From: Gammaproteobacteria bacterium
Lineage (GTDB): Bacteria; Pseudomonadota; Gammaproteobacteria; JACCYU01
Reading direction: 5' to 3'
Length of the DNA: 64,000 nt
NCBI GenBank assembly: GCA_013695765.1
Contig: JACCZW010000062.1
Location: forward strand, 6,665-70,664
A program made the translations under genes and the position numbers. Positions 6,413 to 64,000 of this stretch are shown piece after piece. The notes below the pieces were generated by a model, which was not told the origin of the DNA, searched no databases, and saw only the letters and a list, made by a program, of their open reading frames with translations. Numbering within the stretch: position 1 is the stretch's first letter; every line of letters begins with the position of its first letter.

Positions 6413-7680
6413 CTGGCGGTAAGGGATTGCGGTGGCTTCAGTGCGCGCCACGCCGCGCGACCTTGCTGTCCATCATCCTCGCCACCGCCTGCGGCACGGT
6501 GGAAGAGACGCGCGTGCCCGCCGAACTCGGCCAAGTAAATTCCACGCTATCTGTCGAAGACAAGTGGTATCAATCGGCCGGCGGCGGTGTGGACGAGCGT
6601 TATCTGAAGCTCCAGCCCGCGCTGGCGCGCGACAGGATATACGTCGTCGACGCGAAAGGAACGGTGACCGCCTTGCGCGTCGGCGATGGCGAGCCGATCT
6701 GGGAAGTAGCCTCGGACGACGGCGTTATAGCGGGTCTGCAACACGGCGACGGGCTGCTGTTTCTGGGCACCGAAGATGGTGCTGCGATCGCGCTGCGGCA
6801 GCGCGGCGGCACGGAGGTCTGGCGCAAACAGCTAGGCGCCGAGGTCATGGCGCTGTCCGAACCCGATCTGGGCGTCATCGTGGTGCGCACCGCTGACAGC
6901 CGTCTGCACGGTCTGGACGTCGCCAGTGGCGAGATACTCTGGCAGACCGGGCGCACGACGCCGGTGCTGAATCTGCGTGGCGTCAGCCGCCCGTCGATGG
7001 ACAGCGGCCGCGTGGTGGTGGGATTCGATGACGGCAAGCTCGTGGCGGTGTCGGCCGATCGCGGCAACGTGCTGTGGACGACAACCATATCCAATCCCAC
7101 CGGCAGCTCCGAGTTGGAGCGGCTGACGGACATCGACGGCGAGATCAAGGTGCTCGACGGCATCGTGTATGTTGCGAGCTTTCAGGGTAGAGTCGCGGCG
7201 GTAACTTTGAGCGAGGGGCGCACCCTGTGGTCTCGCGAGATCTCGTCGCACATGGGCCTGGACGTGGATGCGGAGAATGTTTACATCACGGATGCGGACA
7301 GTTATATCTGGGCGCTGGACCGCATCAGCGGCGCGACCTTGTGGAAGCAGGACAATCTGGAATACCGGGAGGTGACCGCGCCGGTCGCCATCGACGACTA
7401 TCTGCTGGTCGGCGATCTCGAAGGCTATGTGCACTGGCTGTCCAGATACGACGGCCGCTTCGTCGCGCGCACCCCGATCGCCAGTGCGGGCATCCTGTCC
7501 ACACCGCTCGTACACAACGAGACCGCCTACGTGCTGGACCGCGGCGGGCTGGTTGCAGCGCTGCAAATTGCGCAACAGCAACAGCAGACGGCAGCCGATA
7601 AGTCTCGAGGTGAAAACGACGATCTGGAATCGCTTGAGCTGGAGCCGTTCCCTAAGGACGGCGCGTCATCGCCGCCGTAA
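6409..7680 (+). CDS. bamB: Outer membrane protein assembly factor BamB (PQQ-repeat beta-propeller lipoprotein)
   Basis: Lipobox (LATAC), repeated PQQ-like beta-propeller blades, conserved position. ATGA overlap with yfgM. Confidence 0.9.
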   Translation: MTGGKGLRWLQCAPRRATLLSIILATACGTVEETRVPAELGQVNSTLSVEDKWYQSAGGGVDERYLKLQPALARDRIYVVDAKGTVTALRVGDGEPIWEVASDDGVIAGLQHGDGLLFLGTEDGAAIALRQRGGTEVWRKQLGAEVMALSEPDLGVIVVRTADSRLHGLDVASGEILWQTGRTTPVLNLRGVSRPSMDSGRVVVGFDDGKLVAVSADRGNVLWTTTISNPTGSSELERLTDIDGEIKVLDGIVYVASFQGRVAAVTLSEGRTLWSREISSHMGLDVDAENVYITDADSYIWALDRISGATLWKQDNLEYREVTAPVAIDDYLLVGDLEGYVHWLSRYDGRFVARTPIASAGILSTPLVHNETAYVLDRGGLVAALQIAQQQQQTAADKSRGENDDLESLELEPFPKDGASSPP

Positions 7681-7749
7681 TCGCGGCGCACCGCGAAGCA
7701 GGGGGCCGATGACGGCGGGGCCGCGTGATACAAGCAACGGAGCGCGGTC

Positions 7750-9168
7750 ATGAGACCCCCACACATCAGACCCACGGTCGCACTGGTCGGGCGTCCGAAC
7801 GTCGGCAAGTCAACCCTGTTCAACCAGCTTACGCGCACGCGCGACGCCCTGGTGGCGGATGCGCCCGGCCTCACGCGTGATCGCAATTATGGTCTCGCGT
7901 CGCTGGGTTCGCGCCAATGCTGGTTGATCGATACCGGCGGACTCGAAGGCGAACGCGAGGCGCTGGATAAAGCCGTCACGGAACAAACGCTGCTAGCGGT
8001 GAAAGCGGCGGATGCGGTGGTGCTGCTGGTGGACGCGCGGGCGGGGCTGACGGCCGCCGACGAAAACATCGCCAGCCAGCTTAAAAAAACGGGCCGCCCG
8101 TTGCTGATCGCGGTCAACAAGGTCGATGGTCTGGACGCCGCACAGGTCAGCGCTGAATTTCACCGTCTCGGCATCGCGCCGCTGATCGCGATCGCGGCAG
8201 TCCACCGGCATGGTCTGGCGATGCTGACGGCGGCCATTCTCGCGAATTTCGCGCTCGGTGAGGATGACGATGACGCGCAGCGCGTGGATGGGGCCTATGA
8301 CGGTCTGCGCATCGCGCTGATCGGCAGACCCAACGTGGGCAAGTCCACCCTGGTCAACCGCCTGCTCGGCGAACAGCGGGTGCTGACCTCGCCGGAGCCC
8401 GGCACCACGCGCGACAGCATCGCGATCCCGTTCGAGCGCGGTGGTCAGCGCTACGTGCTGGCCGATACGGCGGGTGTGCGCCGCCGCAGCCGCATCGAGG
8501 AAACGATCGAGAAGTTCAGCGTGATGAAATCGCTGCAAGCCATTGACTCCGCTCAGGTAGTCGTGGCCGTGCTGGACGCAGAGCAGGGTGTGGCCGAACA
8601 GGACGCGAGCCTGCTGGGGCTGGTTCTGGAATCAGGGCGCGCGCTGGTGATCGCCGTCAACAAATGGGACAGCGTGGATCAGGACGAGCAGCGCTGGGTA
8701 CGGCGCGAGCTGGATCGAAGGCTTAGCTTCGTGGACTTCGCCGACCGTGTCATGATTTCCGCCCTGCACGGCAGCGGGGTGGCTAAATTGATGAATGCCG
8801 TACGGCGCGCGCATGCGTCGGCAATGATCGATGTATCGACCCCGGTCCTGACGCGCCTGCTGGAACAGGCGACCTCAAGCCATCAGCCGCCGCTGGTCGC
8901 GGGCCGACGAATCCGGCTGCGCTACGCTCATCAGGGCGGCAACAATCCGCTGACGCTGGTTATTCACGGCAACCAGACGGGCAAGCTGCCGGGTGCGTAC
9001 AAGCGCTATCTGATGAATTACTTTCGCGAGGCGTTGCGTTTGACCGGCACGCCGGTGCGGCTGGTGTTCAAGACGGGCGAGAATCCCTACGCCGGACGCG
9101 CCGCGGGCGCCCGGGCGCATGATAAAAGCCACGGCCGGCGCTCCGGACGCACCGTAAAACGTGGATAA
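7750..9168 (+). CDS. der: Ribosome-associated GTPase Der (EngA), double GTPase domain
   Basis: Two G-domains each with GRPNVGKST and DTAG motifs, plus a KH-like C-terminal domain. Confidence 0.95.
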   Translation: MRPPHIRPTVALVGRPNVGKSTLFNQLTRTRDALVADAPGLTRDRNYGLASLGSRQCWLIDTGGLEGEREALDKAVTEQTLLAVKAADAVVLLVDARAGLTAADENIASQLKKTGRPLLIAVNKVDGLDAAQVSAEFHRLGIAPLIAIAAVHRHGLAMLTAAILANFALGEDDDDAQRVDGAYDGLRIALIGRPNVGKSTLVNRLLGEQRVLTSPEPGTTRDSIAIPFERGGQRYVLADTAGVRRRSRIEETIEKFSVMKSLQAIDSAQVVVAVLDAEQGVAEQDASLLGLVLESGRALVIAVNKWDSVDQDEQRWVRRELDRRLSFVDFADRVMISALHGSGVAKLMNAVRRAHASAMIDVSTPVLTRLLEQATSSHQPPLVAGRRIRLRYAHQGGNNPLTLVIHGNQTGKLPGAYKRYLMNYFREALRLTGTPVRLVFKTGENPYAGRAAGARAHDKSHGRRSGRTVKRG

Positions 9169-14551: not shown

Positions 14552-15196
14552 ATGAGTGATCATCTTTACCCGAATCTCGACATGTTTGCTGATGCTGGTG
14601 CCACCCCGTCGGGACATGCGTTCAAACGCGTCGAGATGCCGGATGCCGACGTTATTCTTTTCAAATGCTTTTTTGATGTATCCACGGGCGACGCCTATTT
14701 CAAAGAACTAAATGAAAATGCGGCCTGGAAGCAAGAAAAGATCAAGCTGTACGGGCGGCGCATTGATTTACCCCGACTAACTGCCTGGTATGGCGATAAA
14801 GGCAAGTCGTACAGGTATTCGGGCATTACTGTCAGCCCGGAGCCTTGGACGCCGATTTTGCTAGCTATTAAGCAAGCGATTGAAGCCGTGAGTGGAATAC
14901 GGTTCAACAGCGTGCTTTTGAACAAGTATCGGACCGAGCGCGACAGCGTTGCGTGGCACAGCGATGATGAGCTCGAGTTGGGACGAAACCCCGTCATCGG
15001 CTCGGTCAGCTTTGGAGAAGCCCGCGCCTTTCAGTTCAAACACAAGACGAGAGGTTTACGTGAACAAATCATCTTGTCGCACGGAAGCTATCTGATTATG
15101 CGGGGAACCACCCAACATCATTGGTTGCATCAAATCCCCAAACAAACCGCGTTACGCGGTGCAAGGATTAATCTGACGTTCAGGGTAATACAGTGA
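14552..15196 (+). CDS. alkB: AlkB-family Fe(II)/2-oxoglutarate-dependent dioxygenase (alkylated DNA/RNA repair)
   Basis: 2OG-oxygenase HxD...H...R core (WHSDDE, HHWLH, RINLTFR). About 50% GC against a ~65% background. Confidence 0.85.
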   Translation: MSDHLYPNLDMFADAGATPSGHAFKRVEMPDADVILFKCFFDVSTGDAYFKELNENAAWKQEKIKLYGRRIDLPRLTAWYGDKGKSYRYSGITVSPEPWTPILLAIKQAIEAVSGIRFNSVLLNKYRTERDSVAWHSDDELELGRNPVIGSVSFGEARAFQFKHKTRGLREQIILSHGSYLIMRGTTQHHWLHQIPKQTALRGARINLTFRVIQ

Positions 15197-15682: not shown

Positions 15683-16438
15683 CTAGTAACCGAACAGTTC
15701 TATGTCTTTTCGATACGCTCGCGCGACAATTTCCCGCGTCTCTTCAGTGTAGTAATGGCTGTAGCCGAGCCGCTTGGACTTGTTCAGGTGGTTCATATCC
15801 GTGCCGATATTACCCAGCTTTTGCCGCACCTGCGTGTAATCGACGGCCCGATTTTCATGGTAGCCCACGAAATCGACCGCCAGCGTGCCCGCCTCATCGC
15901 ATAAATACTCATGTTGCGGTACCAGGATTTGGTGCTCATAGATCGATTCCGGGGTGATAAAGCCGCTCACAAATGACTCGAAATCCTGATACTGGCTTAA
16001 GTGCTTGGCTCCCCAGCGCTGAAACTGGGCTTTGATGCAGCCGTTTCGGTGGAAGTGATAAATCGAAACCAGGCGGTCCCACGGGTTACGCACGAAAATA
16101 AACTTGAAATAGTCTTTGAAGGCGCGCTCACCAAAGATCTGCTTGTATTCGGCGACGGTGCAATCTCTGCCCGTGCATGAGCCAAACAGGGATGTGCTGA
16201 TCGACTGGCCGCCCGTCTTCGGCACGTGCACATAGATACAGCGATGCCGATCGAATGGCCTCAGCGTTCGCACATTTTTTCCGTGGATGTCCTGCTGGAT
16301 GCTATGGCTGAAGGTACGGAGTTCTTGCCAATAACGTATGGTATCGCCGTTCATACTTTTCAGGCGGGCGATTCGGTATCCCCGGTAGCATTCTTTGGCC
16401 ACCAGCTTAGCGTATTTCAGCGAAAATCGATTGATCAT
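15683..16438 (-). CDS. Sulfotransferase family protein (PAPS-dependent)
   Basis: 5'-PSB motif IYVHVPKTGGQS and 3'-PB motif FVRNPWDRLVSIY. About 50% GC. Start at MINRFSLKY; the first 79 codons of the listed ORF are GC-driven extension. Confidence 0.8.
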   Translation of the reverse strand: MINRFSLKYAKLVAKECYRGYRIARLKSMNGDTIRYWQELRTFSHSIQQDIHGKNVRTLRPFDRHRCIYVHVPKTGGQSISTSLFGSCTGRDCTVAEYKQIFGERAFKDYFKFIFVRNPWDRLVSIYHFHRNGCIKAQFQRWGAKHLSQYQDFESFVSGFITPESIYEHQILVPQHEYLCDEAGTLAVDFVGYHENRAVDYTQVRQKLGNIGTDMNHLNKSKRLGYSHYYTEETREIVARAYRKDIELFGY

Positions 16439-16676
16439 GCGTTCCTCGTCTATGGTTGTTGACCAACGGTGTAGCGAACTACAGCGAGGTGGCGTCGCCC
16501 TTTTGAACACGCATAACGCTAAACCAGTAAAAACCGGCGTGTGACATAACCCTCCCCTTGTAGTAGTCCCCTCTTTTCCCGGGCCTATACCTTGACGCCG
16601 ATCGTTTGTCAACCTCAGTTGGCTGCAATGAATCGCCGCGAGGGCCTCCGTCAAAAGCTGGCCACCCAGTCGCAAT

Positions 16677-17444
16677 CTATTGATTGAACCGATTCCGGGC
16701 CTCGCGGATGGCGCCGGCGCCCGCGTCGCCGCGCAGCCGCTCTACCCACATCGCGGTGGCGCCCGCCACGCCCACCGGCATCGCGAAGAAATTCAGCACA
16801 GGAACACTGGTCATCAACAGCACCGCGCTGCCGAAACCCAGCGCCAGCGGTTTGTTTTGACCCAGCAGTCTGCGGCCATCGCGGAAAGCCAGGTCATGAT
16901 TGCCCATGGGCGCGTCGGCATACTCCAGCGCCAGCATCCACACGCTGAACACCAGCCACGCAAACGGTGCGAATACATTCAATCCGGGGATCAGGAACAG
17001 GATCAGCAGCGGGACGGTGCGAACGACGAGATAGCGAAGCTTGCGCAGCTCGTTGACAACGGCGGTGATGCCTGCCCGAAAAATGTGGCTCCAGCTCTGC
17101 GCGGGCAACGTCTGGCCGGTCAGTCGCGCCTCCAGCTTTTCCGCCAGCAGCCCGTTGAACGGCGCGCTCACGAGATTGGCGATTAAGGTAAATGTGTAGA
17201 ACACGACCAGCAGCGCGGTTACCGCGAACAGCGGCCACAGCATCCAGCGCGCCCACTCCAGCCATGCGGGCAACAGCCAGTCGAGGAACGCTTCGAACCG
17301 GCTGGCGCCGAACCAGATGGCGCCGCCGAATAACGTAAAGTTGATCAGCAACGGAATGATCACGTAGCGGCGGATGCCACGCTCCGTAATCAGACCGAAA
17401 CCGCGCGTCACGTAGCGTGCGCCGCTGGTGAATTGGCCGATCAT
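16677..17444 (-). CDS. cysZ: Sulfate transporter CysZ
   Basis: Four-TM CysZ-family topology and conserved blocks (GLITERGIRRYVIIPLLINF..., EYADAPMGNH). Confidence 0.85.
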   Translation of the reverse strand: MIGQFTSGARYVTRGFGLITERGIRRYVIIPLLINFTLFGGAIWFGASRFEAFLDWLLPAWLEWARWMLWPLFAVTALLVVFYTFTLIANLVSAPFNGLLAEKLEARLTGQTLPAQSWSHIFRAGITAVVNELRKLRYLVVRTVPLLILFLIPGLNVFAPFAWLVFSVWMLALEYADAPMGNHDLAFRDGRRLLGQNKPLALGFGSAVLLMTSVPVLNFFAMPVGVAGATAMWVERLRGDAGAGAIREARNRFNQ

Positions 17445-25276: not shown

Positions 25277-25467
25277 CGATAACGTTGGCAAAGGATTGCC
25301 GATCTACAGACGCAGTGTCAGTCGCCCATGTGCTGTCGTAAATCGTAGGGGCTGGTTGATCTGTGTGTAACCCGGCATCCTCAGTGCCGGGGACTCGCAA
25401 GCTTATCAACCAGCGCGGGCTCGGCTCGATTCACACGTTATGCGCAAATTCTACAATGGAGCAATCG

Positions 25468-25999
25468 ATGAAATTCTTACCTCACACTTCGATTAAGATT
25501 CAGAGACAGAGCAATGGACTTATTGCGGCAGACAAGGAGTTTTTGTTGGCCTTTTGGTCCCGGGTCGATGGTGAGATAGAAGATGGACTATCTGGCGCAA
25601 TTGGTTGCTACATATTTTCCATTCGAGCGGGCAAGGGTTCATTGCCTTGGTACGTTGGACTCGCTGAAAAACAGTCATTTCGCAAGGAGTGCTTTACGAG
25701 TCACAAACTTAAACACTACAACAATGCAATTGCGAAAAAAAAAGGGCACCCCCATATTAACCTTGATCGCCAAGTACACCCCGGGCAATAAACGTGTCAA
25801 CCCTACTGGAAATAAACATCGTGACATTCAGTTTCTTGAAACCATGCTTATTTCTAAGTGTGTGGCCAGAAACGACGAGCTATACAATGTCAGAGACACT
25901 AAGCTGCTGCGGGAAATGCAAGTGCCTGGCTTATTAAATACACCTCAAGGCAAGCTCGCATCATCGGTTTCAGAATTCAGAGGCCTAATTGGCAAATAA
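25468..25999 (+). pseudogene. Hypothetical protein with an N-terminal GIY-YIG-like nuclease motif, interrupted at an A9 homopolymer (frames 1 then 2). Low-GC island cargo.
   Basis: GCYIFSIRAGKGSLPWYVGLAEKQSFRKECFTSH resembles GIY-x(10-12)-YVG-x-A-x(4)-R-x(3)-H. ORFs 25363..25791 and 25583..25999 overlap and switch frame exactly at the aaaaaaaaa run (about 25738-25746). GGAG lies 7 nt before the ATG at 25468. Confidence 0.5.
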
Positions 26000-35335: not shown

Positions 35336-36139
35336 GTGAAAGAACGCTTACAAAAGCTGCTGGCGCGCGAGGGTCTGGGCTCACGCCGCGAAATCGAGGG
35401 CTGGATCGCGGCAGGGCAGGTCAAGGTCAACGGCCACGTCGCGCAGCTGGGCGATCAGGCCGGAGACGGTGACCGGGTGCGCGTACGTGGCAAACCCGTG
35501 CGCCTCTCCAGGCACGTGCGCCCGCGGGTGATCGCGTATCACAAGCCGCAGGGCGAATTGACCACGCGCCAGGACCCGGAAGGACGTCCGACGGTATTCG
35601 CGCGGCTGCCGTATCTGCACGCGGGACGCTGGATCGCGGTGGGCCGTCTGGATGCGAGCACGTCGGGTCTGCTGTTGTTCACTACCGATGGCGCGTTGGC
35701 TAACCTGCTCATGCACCCGTCGTGCGGGGTCGAGCGCGAATATGCCGCGCGCGTGCGCGGCGAGATCAGCGCGGAGGTGCTCGCCCGACTGCAACTGGGT
35801 GTGCTGCTGGACGATGGCCCCGCGCGCTTCGAGACCATTTTAGAGGCCGGTGGCGGCGGCGCCAACCGCTGGTACCACGTGATGCTGCGCGAGGGGCGCA
35901 ACCGCGAAGTGAGGCGGCTGTGGGACAGTCAGAACGTGACGGTCAGCCGGCTGATCCGCATTCGTTATGGTTCGCTGACCCTGGGTCGATGGTTGCGGCC
36001 CGGGCACTGGCGCGAACTGGAGGCGGACGAACTGCGGACGTTATACGGGCAGGCCGGGTTGGACGCTCACGGATGCGCGCCCGGGCCGCACGCTGGAAGG
36101 CGTTCGATCCCGGCGCGCACAAGGCAACGGCCGCGGTGA
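35336..36139 (+). CDS. rluB: 23S rRNA pseudouridine(2605) synthase RluB
   Basis: S4 domain (RLQKLLAREGLGSRRE) and RsuA-family catalytic block (GRLDASTSGLLLFTTDG), with a basic C-terminal tail. Confidence 0.9.
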   Translation: MKERLQKLLAREGLGSRREIEGWIAAGQVKVNGHVAQLGDQAGDGDRVRVRGKPVRLSRHVRPRVIAYHKPQGELTTRQDPEGRPTVFARLPYLHAGRWIAVGRLDASTSGLLLFTTDGALANLLMHPSCGVEREYAARVRGEISAEVLARLQLGVLLDDGPARFETILEAGGGGANRWYHVMLREGRNREVRRLWDSQNVTVSRLIRIRYGSLTLGRWLRPGHWRELEADELRTLYGQAGLDAHGCAPGPHAGRRSIPARTRQRPR

Positions 36140-36185
36140 TTCGCCAGGAGTTACAGCTAGCGGTTAATCCCTCGAAAGAGGAGGG

Positions 36186-36929
36186 TCACCGCGCCCACCT
36201 GAAATTCTGTCCGGTAGTGCCCTTGCTGTCCGGGCCCATGAAGTACAGGTAAGGCGCGATCACGTCGTCCGGCATGGGCAGCGTGGCCGCGTCTTCGCCC
36301 GGGTAGTTCTGCGTCCGCAGATTCGTGCGCACGGGCCCGGGGTCGATGCCGTTCACCCGGACTGGCCGGTCGGTGTCCAGTTCGTCCGCCAGGATATTCA
36401 GTAGCGCCTCCTGGCCGTGTTTCGCCACGCCGTAGGCGCCCCAGTGCGCGCGCGTGCAGTGATCAGTCGAAAACACGATGGCTGAATCCGCGCCCTGTTT
36501 CAGGAGCGGTATGCACACTTGGCAGATGAGAAACGGCGCGTTGAGATTGACGTTGATGATCCGCGCCCACAGTCCGATGTCGTAGTGCTGGATGGGAGTC
36601 AGGCCGCCGACCTGCGCCGCGTTGTTGAGCAGGCCGTCGAGGCGCCCAAATTCGTTCTTGATGTTGTCGCCCAGATCGTCGTAGTCCTTGGGCGTGGCGG
36701 TCTCCAGGTTCAGGGGGAAAATCGCGGGTTGGGGATGGCCGGCGGATTCGATTTCGTCGTAGACCTGTTCCAGTTTTTTGATCGTGCGTCCAAGCAATAT
36801 TACTGTGGCGCCATGTGCGGCATAGGCCTTCGCGACCGTCCGGCCGATACCACCGCTCGCGCCGGTGACCAGAATAACGCGCTCATGGAGGAGATGCGGC
36901 GGGGCGACGTAATTTCGAGGGTCGTTCAT
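36186..36929 (-). CDS. yciK: YciK-family short-chain dehydrogenase/reductase
   Basis: Collinear with E. coli YciK (ILVTGASGGIGR..., NAA...G, WGAYGVAK, INPG). Confidence 0.85.
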   Translation of the reverse strand: MNDPRNYVAPPHLLHERVILVTGASGGIGRTVAKAYAAHGATVILLGRTIKKLEQVYDEIESAGHPQPAIFPLNLETATPKDYDDLGDNIKNEFGRLDGLLNNAAQVGGLTPIQHYDIGLWARIINVNLNAPFLICQVCIPLLKQGADSAIVFSTDHCTRAHWGAYGVAKHGQEALLNILADELDTDRPVRVNGIDPGPVRTNLRTQNYPGEDAATLPMPDDVIAPYLYFMGPDSKGTTGQNFRWAR

Positions 36930-37087
36930 AACAGTGTTGTTGCGGATACATAAAATGCGTACACAGTTGACCCCGACAGATCAGGTTCAAGCCGCGCAGC
37001 AATCCGCCAGGACGATAGCAGTTGCCGTGCAACAGGTTGTGGTTTAGCGGTCATTATTCCTGCACTCGCCGGGAGGTCTGCACTGGT

Positions 37088-37945
37088 TTAGAGGTCAAGC
37101 CATGCGCCGAGATCCTGGTGAATCAAGTCCTGTAGCTTCAGAATATCTTCGCGGTAGTAATTGATCAGTCCAGCTCGCTCGTCCGTCGAAATTTCCGCTT
37201 TCTCAAATTTGCTGGAACCAATGTTGGCGAGGCGCCGACGGATTCCTGACGGTACTATCGACTGCACAGCCCGAGTCATGCCCAGGCTCTTGCGATACTG
37301 TAAGCGGAAGTACTGTATACCTCTTGCTTTTTTGATAGTGCCAGTGTTGTGACGCGTCGATACGTTTGCACGGAAGGTATCGTCAACCTCCAGGTAGCGG
37401 TAAGTCTCGCGCATGACGGAAATGGCGTCTTTTTCCAGGTCGTCAAATAACAAAATTTTCAGTCTGTCTTTCCCGAAGAGATCCAGATAATACTTCACGT
37501 GATTGTAGTACAGGCTGCTCCGCAATATGTCCTCGTCACCATCCAGTATATTCTCCCAACTGTGCGTTTCGTTGCCGACGCGGACGCGCATATTGTAGCC
37601 CGAAATCGTCTTGTCTATAGGATTTCGGAGAATGGCAATTAACTTCGCATCCGGAATGTGAGTGCGGATTGCGTGCGCCGCAAATCTACTGTGCAGGTAG
37701 TTGGGTGAAGCTTCACCCACGGCTTTCTCGGTGGTGACCCCGTTAAACAGAGCAATGTAATCCGCCATGGATCTGACGGGGAATGCGTCCGCTGCACGAT
37801 GCTTTGGATTGGTTTCGTCGTAGGCAAAAAAGCGAGGCTCTTTCAGCCAGCTCATATGGACGTGCGGGTGCTCTTTGAGATAGTAGTAAAGCGATGTCGT
37901 ACCGGCTTTTGCAACACCGATGACTAAGAAATTAGGTAGTTGCAT
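37088..37945 (-). CDS. Sulfotransferase-domain protein (PAPS-dependent; different family from the 15683-16438 enzyme)
   Basis: 5'-PSB FLVIGVAKAGTTSL and 3'-PB ILRNPIDKTISGY. About 48% GC. The ATG at 37945 has a GGAGG Shine-Dalgarno; the ORF-track start at 37975 is a TTG extension. Confidence 0.8.
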   Translation of the reverse strand: MQLPNFLVIGVAKAGTTSLYYYLKEHPHVHMSWLKEPRFFAYDETNPKHRAADAFPVRSMADYIALFNGVTTEKAVGEASPNYLHSRFAAHAIRTHIPDAKLIAILRNPIDKTISGYNMRVRVGNETHSWENILDGDEDILRSSLYYNHVKYYLDLFGKDRLKILLFDDLEKDAISVMRETYRYLEVDDTFRANVSTRHNTGTIKKARGIQYFRLQYRKSLGMTRAVQSIVPSGIRRRLANIGSSKFEKAEISTDERAGLINYYREDILKLQDLIHQDLGAWLDL

Positions 37946-38197
37946 CGAGCCTCCTGTCATTGTCCGCGGTTTCAAGGGGAATAGTGTGCAAAAGCCGATG
38001 AAAGCAGATCGTTACCCTATGCCGCCTGCATACGGTCTTCCGCAGCTGTTACTCGCGCGAGAAAGCCCACTTAACCAGTCCAGAAAGTGAGTCCGCGGCG
38101 CGCTTCGCCGAAAAACTAGACATTGATTGTATCGTACCCATTACTCTACCGGTAAACTCGGAGCTACTGGTAAGCTTCGACGCCCGAGCCGCCTCGA

Positions 38198-39469
38198 CTA
38201 ATCTTTCCGGGCGGGTACCCGCGTGGTTCTGTCCAGCTGCTCTGTAGCACTAAGTTGTTTGGCTGGATTGATGCCTAGCTCGGTGAACCTGCGTGCGCCC
38301 GGCAGCAGTTGCCGCTCCAGCGAACCGACCGCCTTGTTGTACTGATCGACGCTGCTGCTTAAGGATTTGCCCAGACCCGTCAGGTGTTCGGTGAACGTAT
38401 AGACGCGCTTGTAGAGTTCCTCGCCCAGTGCGCGAATCTTCTCGGCGTTTTCGTTGACCGCCTGCTGCCGCCAGCCGTAGGCAATGATGCGCAGCAGCGC
38501 GATGAGGCTGGTCGGTGTGGCCAGGATCACCTTGTCGCGCAGCGCGTCCTCGAGCAGTGCCGGGTCGTGTTGCAGCGCGCTGGACAGAAATTGATCGCCG
38601 GGAATGAACAGCACCACGAAATCCGGCGAGTCCTTGAACTGCGTCCAGTATTGCTTGCTGGCGAGCGCCTTGACCCGCTCGCGCATGCCGCGCGCGTGAC
38701 GCTTTAGATGTTGAGTACGCTGTTGATCGTCCACCGCCTCGACGGCGCTTAAATAAGCATCGAGTGGCGTCTTGGCGTCGATCACGATCTCGCGCCGTTC
38801 GGGCATGCGTAAAATAAGGTCCGGTCGCATGCCACCCTCGGCGGTGGCGTGATGAACTTGTTCGTAGAAATCGCAGTATTCGACCATACCGGCCAGCTCG
38901 GCCAGACGCCGTAAGGTGAGTTCGCCCCACTGCCCGCGCACCTCCGGCCGGCGCAGGGCCTGCACCAGATTTCTCGTCTCCAATTGTAACTGCACCTGGG
39001 ATACGGCCATCAGATTGAGATGCTGAGTGAGCGACCCGTGCGCCGTGGCGCGGTCTTTTTCCATCGCCTGCATTTGTTGCTCGTTTTTTTCCATCGCCTC
39101 GCGAATAGGCTTGACCAGCGTTTCGACCGCTTTCTCCTTGCGTTGCAACTCGGCCTCAGCCTGCACTTGAAACTGCGTCAGGTTCTCCCGCGCCAGGCGT
39201 AGGAATGCCTCGTTATTCTCCTTTAGCGCCCGGCTGGAAAGTGCCGCAAAACTGTCCTTGAGCTGTTGGCGTGCCTCGTCCAGCGCCGCATCGCGTTCGA
39301 CATAGCGCTGTTGCTCGGCTGCAAGTTGCGCGGTCAGTTGTGCATTGTCCCGCTGCTGGCGCTCAAGCTCCGTATGCTTGCGGCCAGCGGCGAACCATGC
39401 GTCGAGCAAAATGCCCGCAATGAACGCGCCGACGAGCGCCGCGATCAATTGCACGTTGAACATCGTCAT
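38198..39469 (-). CDS. rmuC: DNA recombination protein RmuC
   Basis: N-terminal TM helix, long coiled-coil, C-terminal RmuC nuclease-like domain (VVLFIPGDQFLSSAL...ILATPTSL). Confidence 0.9.
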   Translation of the reverse strand: MTMFNVQLIAALVGAFIAGILLDAWFAAGRKHTELERQQRDNAQLTAQLAAEQQRYVERDAALDEARQQLKDSFAALSSRALKENNEAFLRLARENLTQFQVQAEAELQRKEKAVETLVKPIREAMEKNEQQMQAMEKDRATAHGSLTQHLNLMAVSQVQLQLETRNLVQALRRPEVRGQWGELTLRRLAELAGMVEYCDFYEQVHHATAEGGMRPDLILRMPERREIVIDAKTPLDAYLSAVEAVDDQQRTQHLKRHARGMRERVKALASKQYWTQFKDSPDFVVLFIPGDQFLSSALQHDPALLEDALRDKVILATPTSLIALLRIIAYGWRQQAVNENAEKIRALGEELYKRVYTFTEHLTGLGKSLSSSVDQYNKAVGSLERQLLPGARRFTELGINPAKQLSATEQLDRTTRVPARKD

Positions 39470-61500: not shown

Positions 61501-61982
61501 CGGGGTTGCTCCTTTAAACGTTAGGAAAAAGACCGGATACAGGTCAAACGCGCATCAAATGGGCTGATGTACGTAAAGTTCCTACCGCAGCGCCCGAAAT
61601 AAGCGCCCTCGAGCAGTAAAAGCATGGCGTTTGTGCGGCAGGACTACCTGCAAACCGTTTATAGAGTATGGCAAAGCAACCGACCGAAGTCTGGGAGCCG
61701 AACCCGGCGGGGGTGCGAGCGGTAGTAAAAGACCGACTGGCTTGCCCTAAAGGTCGATGATCTGGCGAAATCCGCATTCGTGCGTGCCGCACTTGCGAGA
61801 GGAACAGCGGCATTAGATTTTTCTGCGCGCTTATGGCCCGTACACCCGAGAATGGCTCGTTTTTGAACGCTCGGCGCCTTTGGGCGCGTGGTTTTAACGG
61901 CGCCTATTGACCGACCGGCGGTGTAGGCGAACGCGCATGGCTCGCGCTATAACCAGTGTTGGTTCTACCAAACGAGAGAAAA

Positions 61983-62727
61983 ATGAACCCGTTGGTTGCC
62001 GCATTTGAAGCCTATTTCCGCGTGATTGACGCCGATACGCCGGCGCTGCTGCGCGAAGTTTGCCGTCTTCGCTATCAGGTTTACTGCGAGGACACGCATC
62101 TGGCCGACGGGGAGTTGTTTCCCGAGCGCATTGAGAGCGATACATACAATAAGCGTGCGACTCATATACTTTTGCAGCATCATCCATCCGGCAACTTTGT
62201 CGGCACCATGCGCATTGTGTGCTGCCCGATCGCACTGACCCGCTCGGGCTGTTTCCTATTGAGGAACTCGCCCGTTTCGACACCCGGTTTCCAGGTGTGC
62301 CCGCGCCCCCCTCAGAGCCCATGTGGCGGAGATATCTCGTTTCGCGGTGTTACAACGATTTCCTCATCACAAGCCGCGACGTGTGGAGCGGACGCTTGAA
62401 TCCGAAATGGCAGATGACGGGAAGGCCAGCACCCGCCTGCGATTTCGCCACCCGATGCTCGCGCTGGTGTGTGGCCTTGTGCGTACGAGTGCACACAACG
62501 ACATCACTCACTGGTACGCGCTCATGACACCCAGCGTCCACCGCCTGTTAAGCCACTTTGGTCTGGAGCTGCAAGTCATTGGCCCGTCGTTTGAACATCA
62601 CGGCGAGCGGCGCCCTCATTTTGACAGTATCAGGAATGTAATGGATCGAGCACATCGCCAGCGGCGGGATGTATGGGAATTAGTTACGGACTACGGCAGG
62701 CTGTCGGTGGCGCCGTGCTTCCGATAA
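61983..62727 (+). pseudogene. PEP-CTERM/exosortase system-associated acyltransferase (TIGR03694-like GNAT N-acyl amino acid synthase), split across three frames
   Basis: N-terminus MNPLVAAFEAYFRVIDADTPALLREVCRLRYQVYC (family hallmark) in frame 0; LPDRTDPLGLFPIEELARFD...PSEP in frame 2; (V)AEISRFAV...HPMLAL...NDITHWYALMTP... in frame 1. The second switch coincides with a C6 run (cgcccccctc). Confidence 0.6.
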
Positions 62728-62787: not shown

Positions 62788-63558
62788 TCATTGCGAAACA
62801 ATGTCTATGATCGGGTCCGCCATCCGCATGCTGGTGAGCGCGACGCGCTGAATGCGGTCGCACAAGTCCAGCGCGATCGCCGCGGCTTCGCGCGCCGCAA
62901 TTTCCAGCTTGCGGTTGTCGATCATGTTGATTACCGGTACGACGGTCGCGTCATCCACGTCTTTGAGCGCGCCATCCGCGCTTGCCAGCAGGCGGGCTAC
63001 GTGCATGGGAGTAATCAGGTCGCCGGGACGAGCGCCGGTGATGGCGGTGATGTGAGCGACGCGATGTGCGATGCGTTCGGACAGTCGTTTGCCGACCGCG
63101 CGCGCGGATACTATCGGGATAACCGTGGCCGCGCTGGCCGGTATCACGGGCTCTTCCGGGCCAGGGGCCTTGATCAACCGTCCGCGCGCACCGTCGCACT
63201 TGACCAGAGTGACATCGAAATGAGCGGCGGCGTGGATATGCGTGATACGGGCAGCCGCAACGGCGCCCAGGCGCTCAGGTTTAACCATCGGCAAAGCGTA
63301 GGCGACCGTGCGCTCGCGGCGTGCCGATTCGATTACGGCCGGCGTGAGGCGGCTTTCCTCCGCGATTACACGAGCGCCTGTGAACGTGTCGGGAAACGGC
63401 GGTATAACGACCGTGGAAGTAATGCCTACGCGGCCCTCGTGTTCCGCCGCCAGCCGATACATTGTGCTCTTCTTACCGCCGGCACCGACGACACAGATGA
63501 TCCCGCGTGTCGCGCAAAGCGCCTCGACCAGATTGAAATGCGGCCGGTGTGGGATCAT
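62788..63558 (-). CDS. YqeC-like putative selenium-dependent molybdenum hydroxylase maturation protein (P-loop like)
   Basis: N-terminal ICVVGAGGKKSTMYRLA P-loop-like block and overall size/architecture of the YqeC family. Assignment from memory of the family pattern only. Confidence 0.5.
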   Translation of the reverse strand: MIPHRPHFNLVEALCATRGIICVVGAGGKKSTMYRLAAEHEGRVGITSTVVIPPFPDTFTGARVIAEESRLTPAVIESARRERTVAYALPMVKPERLGAVAAARITHIHAAAHFDVTLVKCDGARGRLIKAPGPEEPVIPASAATVIPIVSARAVGKRLSERIAHRVAHITAITGARPGDLITPMHVARLLASADGALKDVDDATVVPVINMIDNRKLEIAAREAAAIALDLCDRIQRVALTSMRMADPIIDIVSQ

Positions 63559-63634
63559 CCCGGTTTATGTTTCTTCGGTTCATGGGGTGCGCCAGGTCTT
63601 GATGACCATAAGCGTTTCCTCGGCACGGAATTGA

Positions 63635-64000
63635 CTAAACGCCGCGCGCCGGGCGCGCGGGTCTTGGCGGTGGCATCGCGTCGAACCGAATTGACTCGTG
63701 CCCGTTGAAGATCAGAAAGTGTTTGCCTTTGGCGCGCCCGATCATGATCACGCCCGTCTTGTGCGCCAGGTCCAGACCCATCCGCGTGATGCCGGAGCGC
63801 GACAGCAGCACCGGTATGCCCATCTGCGCGACCTTGATGACCATCTCGGAAGTCAGCCGCCCGGTGGTATAGAAAATCTTGTCGCCGCCGTCGATCCCGT
63901 CCAGCCACATCATGCCCGCGATCGCATCCACCGCGTTGTGGCGGCCAACATCCTCCACGAATTTCAGAATCCCGGTCTCCGAACAAAGCGCGCAACCGTG
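63635..64000 (-). CDS. fdhD: FdhD-family sulfurtransferase / formate dehydrogenase accessory protein, C-terminal part (N-terminus beyond the window edge)
   Basis: EDVGRHNAVDAIAGMMWLDG...TTGRLTSEMVIKVAQMGIPVLLSRSGITRMGLDLAHKTGVIMIGRAKG matches the FdhD C-terminal consensus (EDVGRHNA.DK..G......TSGR.S.EMV.K.A..GIP...S.SAPT). Confidence 0.65.
   Translation of the reverse strand, partial: HGCALCSETGILKFVEDVGRHNAVDAIAGMMWLDGIDGGDKIFYTTGRLTSEMVIKVAQMGIPVLLSRSGITRMGLDLAHKTGVIMIGRAKGKHFLIFNGHESIRFDAMPPPRPARPARGV

Follow-up and report, generated by a model that had tools for sequence, protein, structure and literature searches.

The 64,000-nt stretch of DNA analysed here (the window; contig JACCZW010000062.1 of the gammaproteobacterial assembly GCA_013695765.1, positions 6,665 to 70,664 of the forward strand) carries on its minus strand, at 37088 to 37945 between rmuC and yciK, a gene for a bona fide member of the superfamily of sulfotransferases that use 3′-phosphoadenosine 5′-phosphosulfate (PAPS), belonging to its heparan-sulfate-type branch. 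It is an accessory gene common to a small group of bacteria and is not private to this genome. Taken together, the observations are best explained, as we hold with moderate confidence, by a PAPS-dependent sulfotransferase of carbohydrate type that would act on a glycan acceptor and would be encoded by a one-gene cassette imported into the common ancestor of the window genome and its relative L085. A preliminary description of the window, made from the nucleotide sequence alone, had proposed a foreign sulfotransferase gene in this position and the sulfation of a surface polymer or lipid.

The presence of a sulfotransferase between yciK and rmuC was confirmed by Pfam, by the motifs and by the profiles of the flanking genes. 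In Pfam the protein matched Sulfotransfer_3 (PF13469; 2.6e-14, 54.5 bits, cut-off 27) and Sulfotransfer_1 (PF00685; 2.6e-13, 50.4 bits, cut-off 22), both above cut-off. No NCBIfam model was matched by either of the two sulfotransferases of the window. Hallmarks of PAPS sulfotransferases are a 5′-phosphosulfate-binding (5′-PSB) loop with a catalytic Lys (or Arg) and a Gly on a strand-loop-helix, and a 3′-phosphate-binding (3′-PB) motif R-x3-D-x3-S on a strand-turn-helix (PMC11625862). Both of the motifs already pointed out in the window gene are present, FLVIGVAKAGTTSL for the 5′-PSB loop and LRNPIDKTIS, with the R-x3-D-x3-S pattern, for the 3′-PB motif. In the structural model, the 5′-PSB loop (G10-V-A-K13-A-G15-T-T-S18) lies after strand 6-9 and before helix 16-24, and the 3′-PB motif (R107-N-P-I-D111-K-T-I-S115) comes after strand 101-106, where helix 109-122 begins. 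Key residues are K13, G15-T16-T17-S18, E36 within KEPRFF, and R107, D111 and S115; in 119 homologues, T16 and R107 were invariant, and G15, T17, E36 and S115 were conserved in at least 90%. The K13/GTTS loop would hold the 5′-phosphosulfate of PAPS, and R107 and S115 would hold its 3′-phosphate.

The best PDB sequence match was 3RNL over the full length (query residues 3-282; phmmer 7e-47, family profile 7.7e-92), followed in the profile search by the N-sulfotransferase domain of NDST1 (2.4e-23) and by HS3ST3, HS3ST5 and HS3ST1 (about 5e-21 to 2e-19), with the cytosolic sulfotransferases (SULTs) only at about 4e-06 or weaker. An AlphaFold2 (AF2) model from the 119-sequence alignment, which replaced an earlier run on nine sequences (predicted local distance difference test, pLDDT, 59.5), reached a pLDDT of 90.3 and a predicted template modelling score of 0.84. 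When it was compared with the PDB by Foldseek, 3RNL came first (E 3e-18, template modelling score, TM, 0.72/0.83), followed by heparan sulfate 3-O-sulfotransferases (3-OST) and N-sulfotransferases (NST; TM 0.64-0.69, E about 1e-11), with CurM, the olefin-synthase sulfotransferase domains, tyrosylprotein sulfotransferases (TPSTs) and cytosolic SULTs all at a TM of 0.52 or less. The best 50 of the 63 matches (E ≤ 0.001) were all sulfotransferases, and the alpha/beta fold, built on a central parallel sheet, is superimposable on solved ones. Since NST and 3-OST outrank SULT and TPST in both profile E-value and TM, the fold is that of a carbohydrate (heparan-sulfate-type) sulfotransferase. No signal peptide is apparent, because the N-terminus is taken up by the first beta-strand and the PAPS loop, and the enzyme is predicted to be soluble, cytoplasmic and PAPS-dependent, of carbohydrate type, with a fold like that of the heparan sulfate 3-O- and N-sulfotransferases.

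NDST1 and 3-OST use as catalytic base a glutamate of the loop that succeeds helix 1, in the motif E-x-x-F-F (E642 in NDST1, E90 in HS3ST1). By motif resemblance and conservation, the near-invariant E36 is probably the catalytic base here, which would deprotonate the hydroxyl (or amine) of a sugar acceptor. With HS3ST1, HS3ST3, HS3ST5 and the NDST1 domain, the protein shares the fold, the PSB lysine and the PB serine, and its Glu-x-x-Phe-Phe resembles their catalytic-glutamate loop (PMC11625862), but identity is 17-21%, those are eukaryotic Golgi enzymes acting on heparan sulfate, and in the sequence alignments nothing in HS3ST or NDST1 corresponds to the last 90 residues of the query. The structure 3RNL (sulfotransferase of Alicyclobacillus acidocaldarius, released 2011) shares the N-terminal PSB loop, K-E-x-x-F-F and R-N-P-x-D-R-x-x-S, yet it comes from another genus (Alicyclobacillus) at about 28% identity, and it informs the fold but not the function, as no substrate or function was found assigned to it.

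The gene occupies what is called here the rmuC-yciK slot, laid out in the window as follows.

37088 to 37945, minus strand: sulfotransferase coding sequence, 285 amino acids, stop codon included in the span (Pfam, match to PDB 3RNL, AF2 model)
37950 to 37955, minus strand: Shine-Dalgarno sequence AGGAGG, 4 nt before the ATG, by direct reading of the sequence
37946 to 38197, minus strand: spacer from the rmuC stop to the sulfotransferase start, 252 bp, GC 54.8%
36930 to 37087, minus strand: spacer from the sulfotransferase stop to the yciK start, 158 bp, GC 53.8%
36186 to 36929, minus strand: yciK, YciK-family short-chain dehydrogenase/reductase (SDR) oxidoreductase, downstream flank of the slot (NF006509, 1.6e-84, 283 bits against a cut-off of 269)
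38198 to 39469, minus strand: rmuC, upstream flank of the slot (PF02646, 5.8e-99), 423 amino acids in public records

A scan for RmuC with one genome per GTDB species gave 75 loci, on which UbiG, the haloacid dehalogenase (HAD) phosphatase, RmuC, the sulfotransferase, YciK and RluB were placed by tblastn. Within the clade, that is, the uncultured gammaproteobacterial group around the window genome, a homologous sulfotransferase was found in the slot of four sampled lineages (55-88% identity) and was missing from three. The closest GTDB species representative (L010; RmuC 82%, YciK 85% identity) has an rmuC-yciK spacer of only 83 bp with no sulfotransferase, and relative to this empty arrangement the gene is an insert. 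In L085 a homologue (P0002; 88% identity, GC 50.1%) stands directly upstream of a YciK with 92% identity; in L086 (RmuC 80%, YciK 80%) P0003 (59%) and in L087 (RmuC 75%, YciK 77%) P0005 (55%) lie between rmuC and yciK, as also in L173 of the same species as L087. Two more clade members were reached through YciK, and in both the slot is empty (L174, spacer of 271 bp; contig of P0138, 158 bp). No significant tblastn match to a sulfotransferase remnant was obtained in the empty spacers of L010 and L174, and the aligned spacers of the window, L085, L086, L087 and L010 were too diverged for common junctions to be placed. A scan of metagenome contigs with the slot-sulfotransferase alignment added no slot loci, and the homologues that it returned did not exceed 52% identity. 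The synteny comparison suggested in the preliminary description thus revealed a slot that is occupied in some relatives and empty in others, and the acquired single-gene insertion it proposed stands as an insert relative to L010 but not as a private or recent acquisition of this genome, as L085, L086 and L087/L173 carry a homologue. The rmuC-yciK slot is a permissive site of recurrently variable gene content.

Other cargo was seen in the slot of more distant relatives, namely a squalene/phytoene-synthase (SQS/PSY)-like open reading frame (ORF) of 257-294 amino acids, the label of which was judged from the sequence, a GGDEF response regulator, and an opposite-strand NAD-dependent epimerase (loci L040, L041, L044, L045, L048, L071 and L022, at about 7100-8100 in most; L021 and L037, 7250-8270; L043, 7182-8171). 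L033 and L046 have the slot without cargo. A functional link of the sulfotransferase to YciK was set aside, given that distant relatives hold unrelated cargo in the same place.

In base composition, the gene departs from its surroundings: GC is 50.0% in the coding sequence and 51.4% over the interval 36930-38197, against 61.5-61.9% in the 7 kb on either side, so the low-GC dip noted earlier is real in comparison with flanks of about 62%, although the figure of about 48% given for it was too low. Among the 58 ORFs of the window, the sulfotransferase has the second-lowest GC (z = -2.7, or -3.1 when only ORFs of at least 200 amino acids are compared), and its GC at third codon positions (GC3) is 0.595 against an ORF mean of 0.71-0.73 (z = -1.7 to -2.2, the latter against ORFs of at least 200 amino acids). 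The lowest-GC ORF is at 25363-25791 on the plus strand (142 amino acids, GC 47.6%, GC3 0.51, no Pfam or NCBIfam match), flanked by the genes of a soluble pyrophosphatase and an H+-pyrophosphatase. By codon position, GC is 0.54/0.37/0.59 in the sulfotransferase, 0.65/0.43/0.79 in yciK and 0.68/0.39/0.73 in rmuC. Roughly half of the GC deficit, by our estimate, falls on codon positions 1 and 2 and reflects an amino-acid make-up that is typical of the family, since the L087 homologue is equally low in GC1 though its GC3 is host-like. The remaining half is a genuine anomaly of synonymous sites. GC3 of the slot allele equals that of the flanks in L086 (0.726 against 0.72-0.74) and L087 (0.803 against 0.81-0.82), but falls far short of it in the window (0.594, flanks 0.73-0.79) and in L085 (0.583, flanks 0.742). 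The foreign look of the gene is therefore borne out at synonymous sites, which are atypical for the genome, and is countered in part by the fact that a relative shares the gene at the same low GC (L085, 50.1%) and with a synonymous divergence (dS) equal to that of yciK.

When the window is compared with L085, the sulfotransferase and yciK have dS values of 0.42 and 0.45 and ratios of non-synonymous to synonymous divergence (dN/dS) of 0.31 and 0.10, respectively. As the dS of the sulfotransferase matches that of yciK, the common ancestor of these two lineages already had the gene in its low-GC3 form, and since their split the gene has co-diverged with yciK under purifying selection. Trees of the flanking genes separated a subclade of the window, P0122, L085 and L010 from one with L086, L087/L173, L174, the P0138 contig and others, and presence of the sulfotransferase is patchy in both, each subclade holding occupied and empty slots. 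In the sulfotransferase tree (neighbour-joining, 200 bootstraps), P0001 grouped with P0002 (100%), and P0003, P0004, P0005 and P0006 formed a second group (98%), within which P0006 joined P0005 (100%).

These patterns suggest a one-gene accessory cassette in a permissive rmuC-yciK slot, patchily present in one uncultured gammaproteobacterial clade, with a sulfotransferase lineage that would have been associated with the slot in this clade for long. The window/L085 allele, compositionally foreign at synonymous sites, was probably imported or swapped in after the split from L010; such an import or swap is favoured because the slot of L010 is empty, the L086 and L087 alleles are host-like, and the slot alleles are mutual nearest relatives. 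Most plausibly, an unsampled relative of lower GC and identical gene order would have supplied it by recombination within the conserved flanks, after which it would have been inherited vertically under purifying selection. A weak dip of sliding-window GC3 at the slot-proximal ends of the flanks would be compatible with such recombination, but it coincides with less conserved protein termini.

The main rival is ancient residence, with one entry in the clade ancestor, vertical descent, three losses (in L010, L174 and the lineage of P0138), and a low GC3 due to local mutation or expression effects. It is a coherent account of all but the GC3 contrast: both subclades use one and the same slot, the slot sulfotransferases are mutual best matches, their tree is roughly congruent with the flank trees, the divergence of the sulfotransferase relative to that of YciK varies fairly little (ratio 1.5 to 2.1), the window-L085 dS matches yciK, and an amino-acid effect found in all alleles accounts for about half of the GC deficit. 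However, GC3 equals that of the flanks in L086/L087 and is 0.14-0.20 lower in window/L085, and it is difficult to see why amelioration should have differed between genomes of similar GC given equal time; the sister L010, moreover, has its empty 83-bp spacer without a remnant. We therefore regard ancient residence as possible but rather unlikely, and retain import into the window/L085 ancestor as the favoured history.

As to function, the best-supported one would be the PAPS-dependent transfer of sulfate, in the cytoplasm, to a sugar within the precursor of a glycan or glycolipid. We infer a glycan acceptor because all the homologue contexts examined are glycan clusters and because the synechan sulfotransferase XssA of Synechocystis 6803 matches the protein from end to end. 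Five more distant homologues were examined for context, and all five are in glycan-biosynthesis clusters among glycosyltransferases (GTs), as follows.

P0006: asparagine synthase, GT4, polysaccharide lyase, heparinase II/III-like protein
P0010: WecG, GT2, Wzy, Wzx, two methyltransferases, two further sulfotransferases
P0011: heparinase II/III-like protein, UDP-glucose dehydrogenase, GT4
P0014: PIG-L deacetylase, three GT4s, two further sulfotransferases, polysaccharide lyase
P0079: GT4, another sulfotransferase

In Synechocystis 6803, the genes sll5042-60 constitute the xss cluster, the sulfotransferases of which are xssA and xssE, and deletion of xssA abolished synechan accumulation and bloom formation (PMC8205485). 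XssA (sll5042; plasmid pSYSM) aligns with the window protein over the full length at 24% identity (E 5e-22) and has the same three motifs; XssE matches it only weakly. XssA differs, on the other hand, in being encoded inside a Wzx/Wzy cluster with eight glycosyltransferases and control by XssQ (PMC8205485), whereas the window gene is an orphan among housekeeping genes, and location in a polysaccharide cluster, common to XssA, P0006, P0010, P0011, P0014 and P0079, does not hold for it. In Vibrio sp. KMM 8419, sulfotransferases lie within an 80-gene capsule locus which also carries cysNDC for PAPS synthesis (PMC11641403); a parallel by description, this case illustrates that sulfated surface polysaccharides and sulfotransferases exist in Gammaproteobacteria, but the neighbourhood of the window gene is without a capsule locus or cysNDC. 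The likeliest acceptor would be a lipid-linked oligosaccharide repeat or some other precursor of a glycan or glycolipid, synthesised by genes in another part of the genome. Sulfation of a surface polymer, as put forward in the preliminary description, is thus plausible from the homologue contexts; the window itself has neither a glycan cluster nor PAPS genes.

Homologues with 43% identity on L171 (5961-9156) and L170 (4917-10557) are beside a PIG-L-family deacetylase, heparinase II/III-like proteins, UDP-glucose dehydrogenase and GT4s. The combination recalls, by analogy, heparan-sulfate synthesis, in which an N-deacetylase is paired with an N-sulfotransferase, and loci of this type may be bacterial clusters for glycosaminoglycan-like sulfated polymers.

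In JGI sample 3300041965, the slot is empty on a 73-kb contig belonging to the clade (that of P0138), and a 68-kb contig carries P0006, the nearest sulfotransferase to the slot allele of L087 (65%), in an exopolysaccharide (EPS)-type cluster. If the two contigs belong to one organism, the gene would have moved between slot and polysaccharide cluster.

A different acceptor, a small molecule or lipid (sulfolipid, secondary metabolite or xenobiotic) instead of a glycan, would suit an orphan gene in a housekeeping region far from polysaccharide genes; Sulfotransfer_1 and Sulfotransfer_3 also cover enzymes that act on glycolipids and small molecules, NodH and Stf0 among them (PMC11625862), and CurM and olefin-synthase sulfotransferase domains were among the weaker fold matches. 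This is nevertheless improbable, given that the nearest characterised structures are all polysaccharide sulfotransferases, clearly ahead in TM of SULTs and CurM, and that every homologue context examined is a glycan cluster. Least probable by far is a decaying, non-functional passenger of the permissive slot, which would agree with the patchy presence and repeated absence, a dN/dS three times that of yciK, and the want of partner genes nearby, but hardly with an intact ORF having all PAPS-binding motifs and a strong ribosome-binding site, a dN/dS well under 1, nucleotide identity in six contigs from different samples, and retention in four lineages at 55-88% identity.

Several points weigh against the imported glycan sulfotransferase that we prefer. 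The gene lies neither in nor near a glycan-biosynthesis cluster, no PAPS-synthesis gene was found in the 64-kb window, and for no family member closer than 24% identity is there a demonstrated substrate. HMMER leaves a gap at the KEPRFF loop and does not align E36 with the catalytic Glu of NDST1, and thus E36 is a lead for the catalytic base, not an established one. Monophyly of all six slot sulfotransferases has a bootstrap of only 59% in the neighbour-joining tree, and P0006, 65% identical to P0005, nests with it although its own contig (54% GC) carries it in a glycan-biosynthesis cluster. A donor search over 5.8 billion proteins yielded, from beyond the slot clade, no homologue with more than 60% identity. 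Finally, sliding GC3 and identity against L010 dip but weakly near the slot, over the final 40 codons of rmuC and the initial 60 codons of yciK, termini that are poorly conserved anyway.

Within the interval 36930-38197, the sulfotransferase is the single gene, and it lies on the minus strand. The program-made ORF (37088 to 37975, minus strand) is longer than the coding sequence chosen here, the start of which, the ATG at 37945, agrees with all homologues (M-x-LPNF) and with public gene calls (285 amino acids). The perfect GGAGG Shine-Dalgarno sequence that had been reported was recovered as AGGAGG 4 nt before this ATG. The rmuC ORF is extendable to 39505. The genes rmuC, the sulfotransferase and yciK, as well as a gph-like gene and ubiG further upstream, are on the same strand, and the close neighbours are rmuC, yciK, rluB, the gph-like gene and ubiG. 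Scans for promoter and terminator consensus sequences gave none on the sulfotransferase strand in either spacer, with counts at the level of shuffled sequence; an Rfam scan of 36000-39000 gave no match, and a tRNA scan of the whole window found none. In keeping with the single gene without mobility genes of the preliminary description, no mobility gene, tRNA target or flanking repeat was found around it. Flanking direct and inverted repeats, considered as insertion scars, were rejected, as only 10-20 nt matches at chance level occurred (an exact 11-mer pair is expected about 0.4 times per 1.8 kb). NCBI already lists an identical protein under the title ‘MAG: sulfotransferase [Gammaproteobacteria bacterium]’ (metagenome-assembled genome, MAG; GCA_020063985.1). 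Altogether, seven contigs of public assemblies encode the identical protein; in six of them, which are from different samples, the gene is identical in nucleotides and the neighbours are the same.

The rest of the 64-kb window is housekeeping in character (rlmN, hisS, bamB, der, smc, ligA, ppa, hppA, trpS, scpAB, rluB, ubiG, gyrA, serC, pheA, aroA, cmk, rpsA, lapB and a galU-like gene). Other features in it are the following.

15683-16438, minus strand: second sulfotransferase (Sulfotransfer_2, 4.5e-16), with PKTGG and RNPWDR motifs, directly downstream of cysZ
16677-17444, minus strand: cysZ, sulfate transporter (NF003433, 8.8e-81)
14552-15196, plus strand: AlkB-like 2-oxoglutarate (2OG)-Fe(II) oxygenase beside the second sulfotransferase, GC 50.5%
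61956-62399, plus strand: exosortase-associated acyltransferase (PEP-CTERM, TIGR03694), first part (model positions 2-77, 79.5 bits)
62323-62727, plus strand: exosortase-associated acyltransferase (TIGR03694), second part (model positions 111-239, 110.5 bits)

The window thus has two sulfotransferases of different families, as had been recognised, Sulfotransfer_2 in the one case and Sulfotransfer_3/Sulfotransfer_1 in the other. The second is moderately low in GC (52.8%; ORF 15683-16675) and may be functionally paired with the adjoining cysZ. The acyltransferase at 62 kb, which the preliminary description had enlisted in favour of a decorated surface, gives weak support: both ORFs are below the TIGR03694 cut-off of 111.95 and in different frames, and since the match is split over two frames the gene is frameshifted, by pseudogene formation or by an error of the MAG assembly. 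Next to it, a YqeC-type selenium cofactor biosynthesis protein (62788-63558, minus strand; TIGR03172, 1.2e-43) overlaps an opposite ORF of 305 amino acids without family match (62791-63708, plus strand), and the minus-strand YqeC-type gene is probably the real one of the pair.

A more far-reaching and doubtful idea is a strain-variable cassette of the clade, exchanged through flank recombination, that would together with the cysZ-linked sulfotransferase switch surface-glycan sulfation on and off in trans, in the manner of serotype conversion with no phage or mobile element.

With the protein already annotated as a sulfotransferase in a public MAG, and thousands of uncharacterised members in the family, the import beyond annotation is small. 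The gene is a clean example of how a GC dip may overstate foreignness, half of the deficit being amino-acid composition and the gene being common to members of a clade, and of a single intergenic slot with cargo gained and lost among relatives. The functional inference is not new in kind, since sulfated polysaccharides with sulfotransferases encoded in their clusters are known in cyanobacteria (PMC8205485) and in Vibrio sp. KMM 8419 (PMC11641403). If surface-glycan sulfation is true of these bacteria, a little-studied uncultured gammaproteobacterial group would join the known producers of sulfated polysaccharides.

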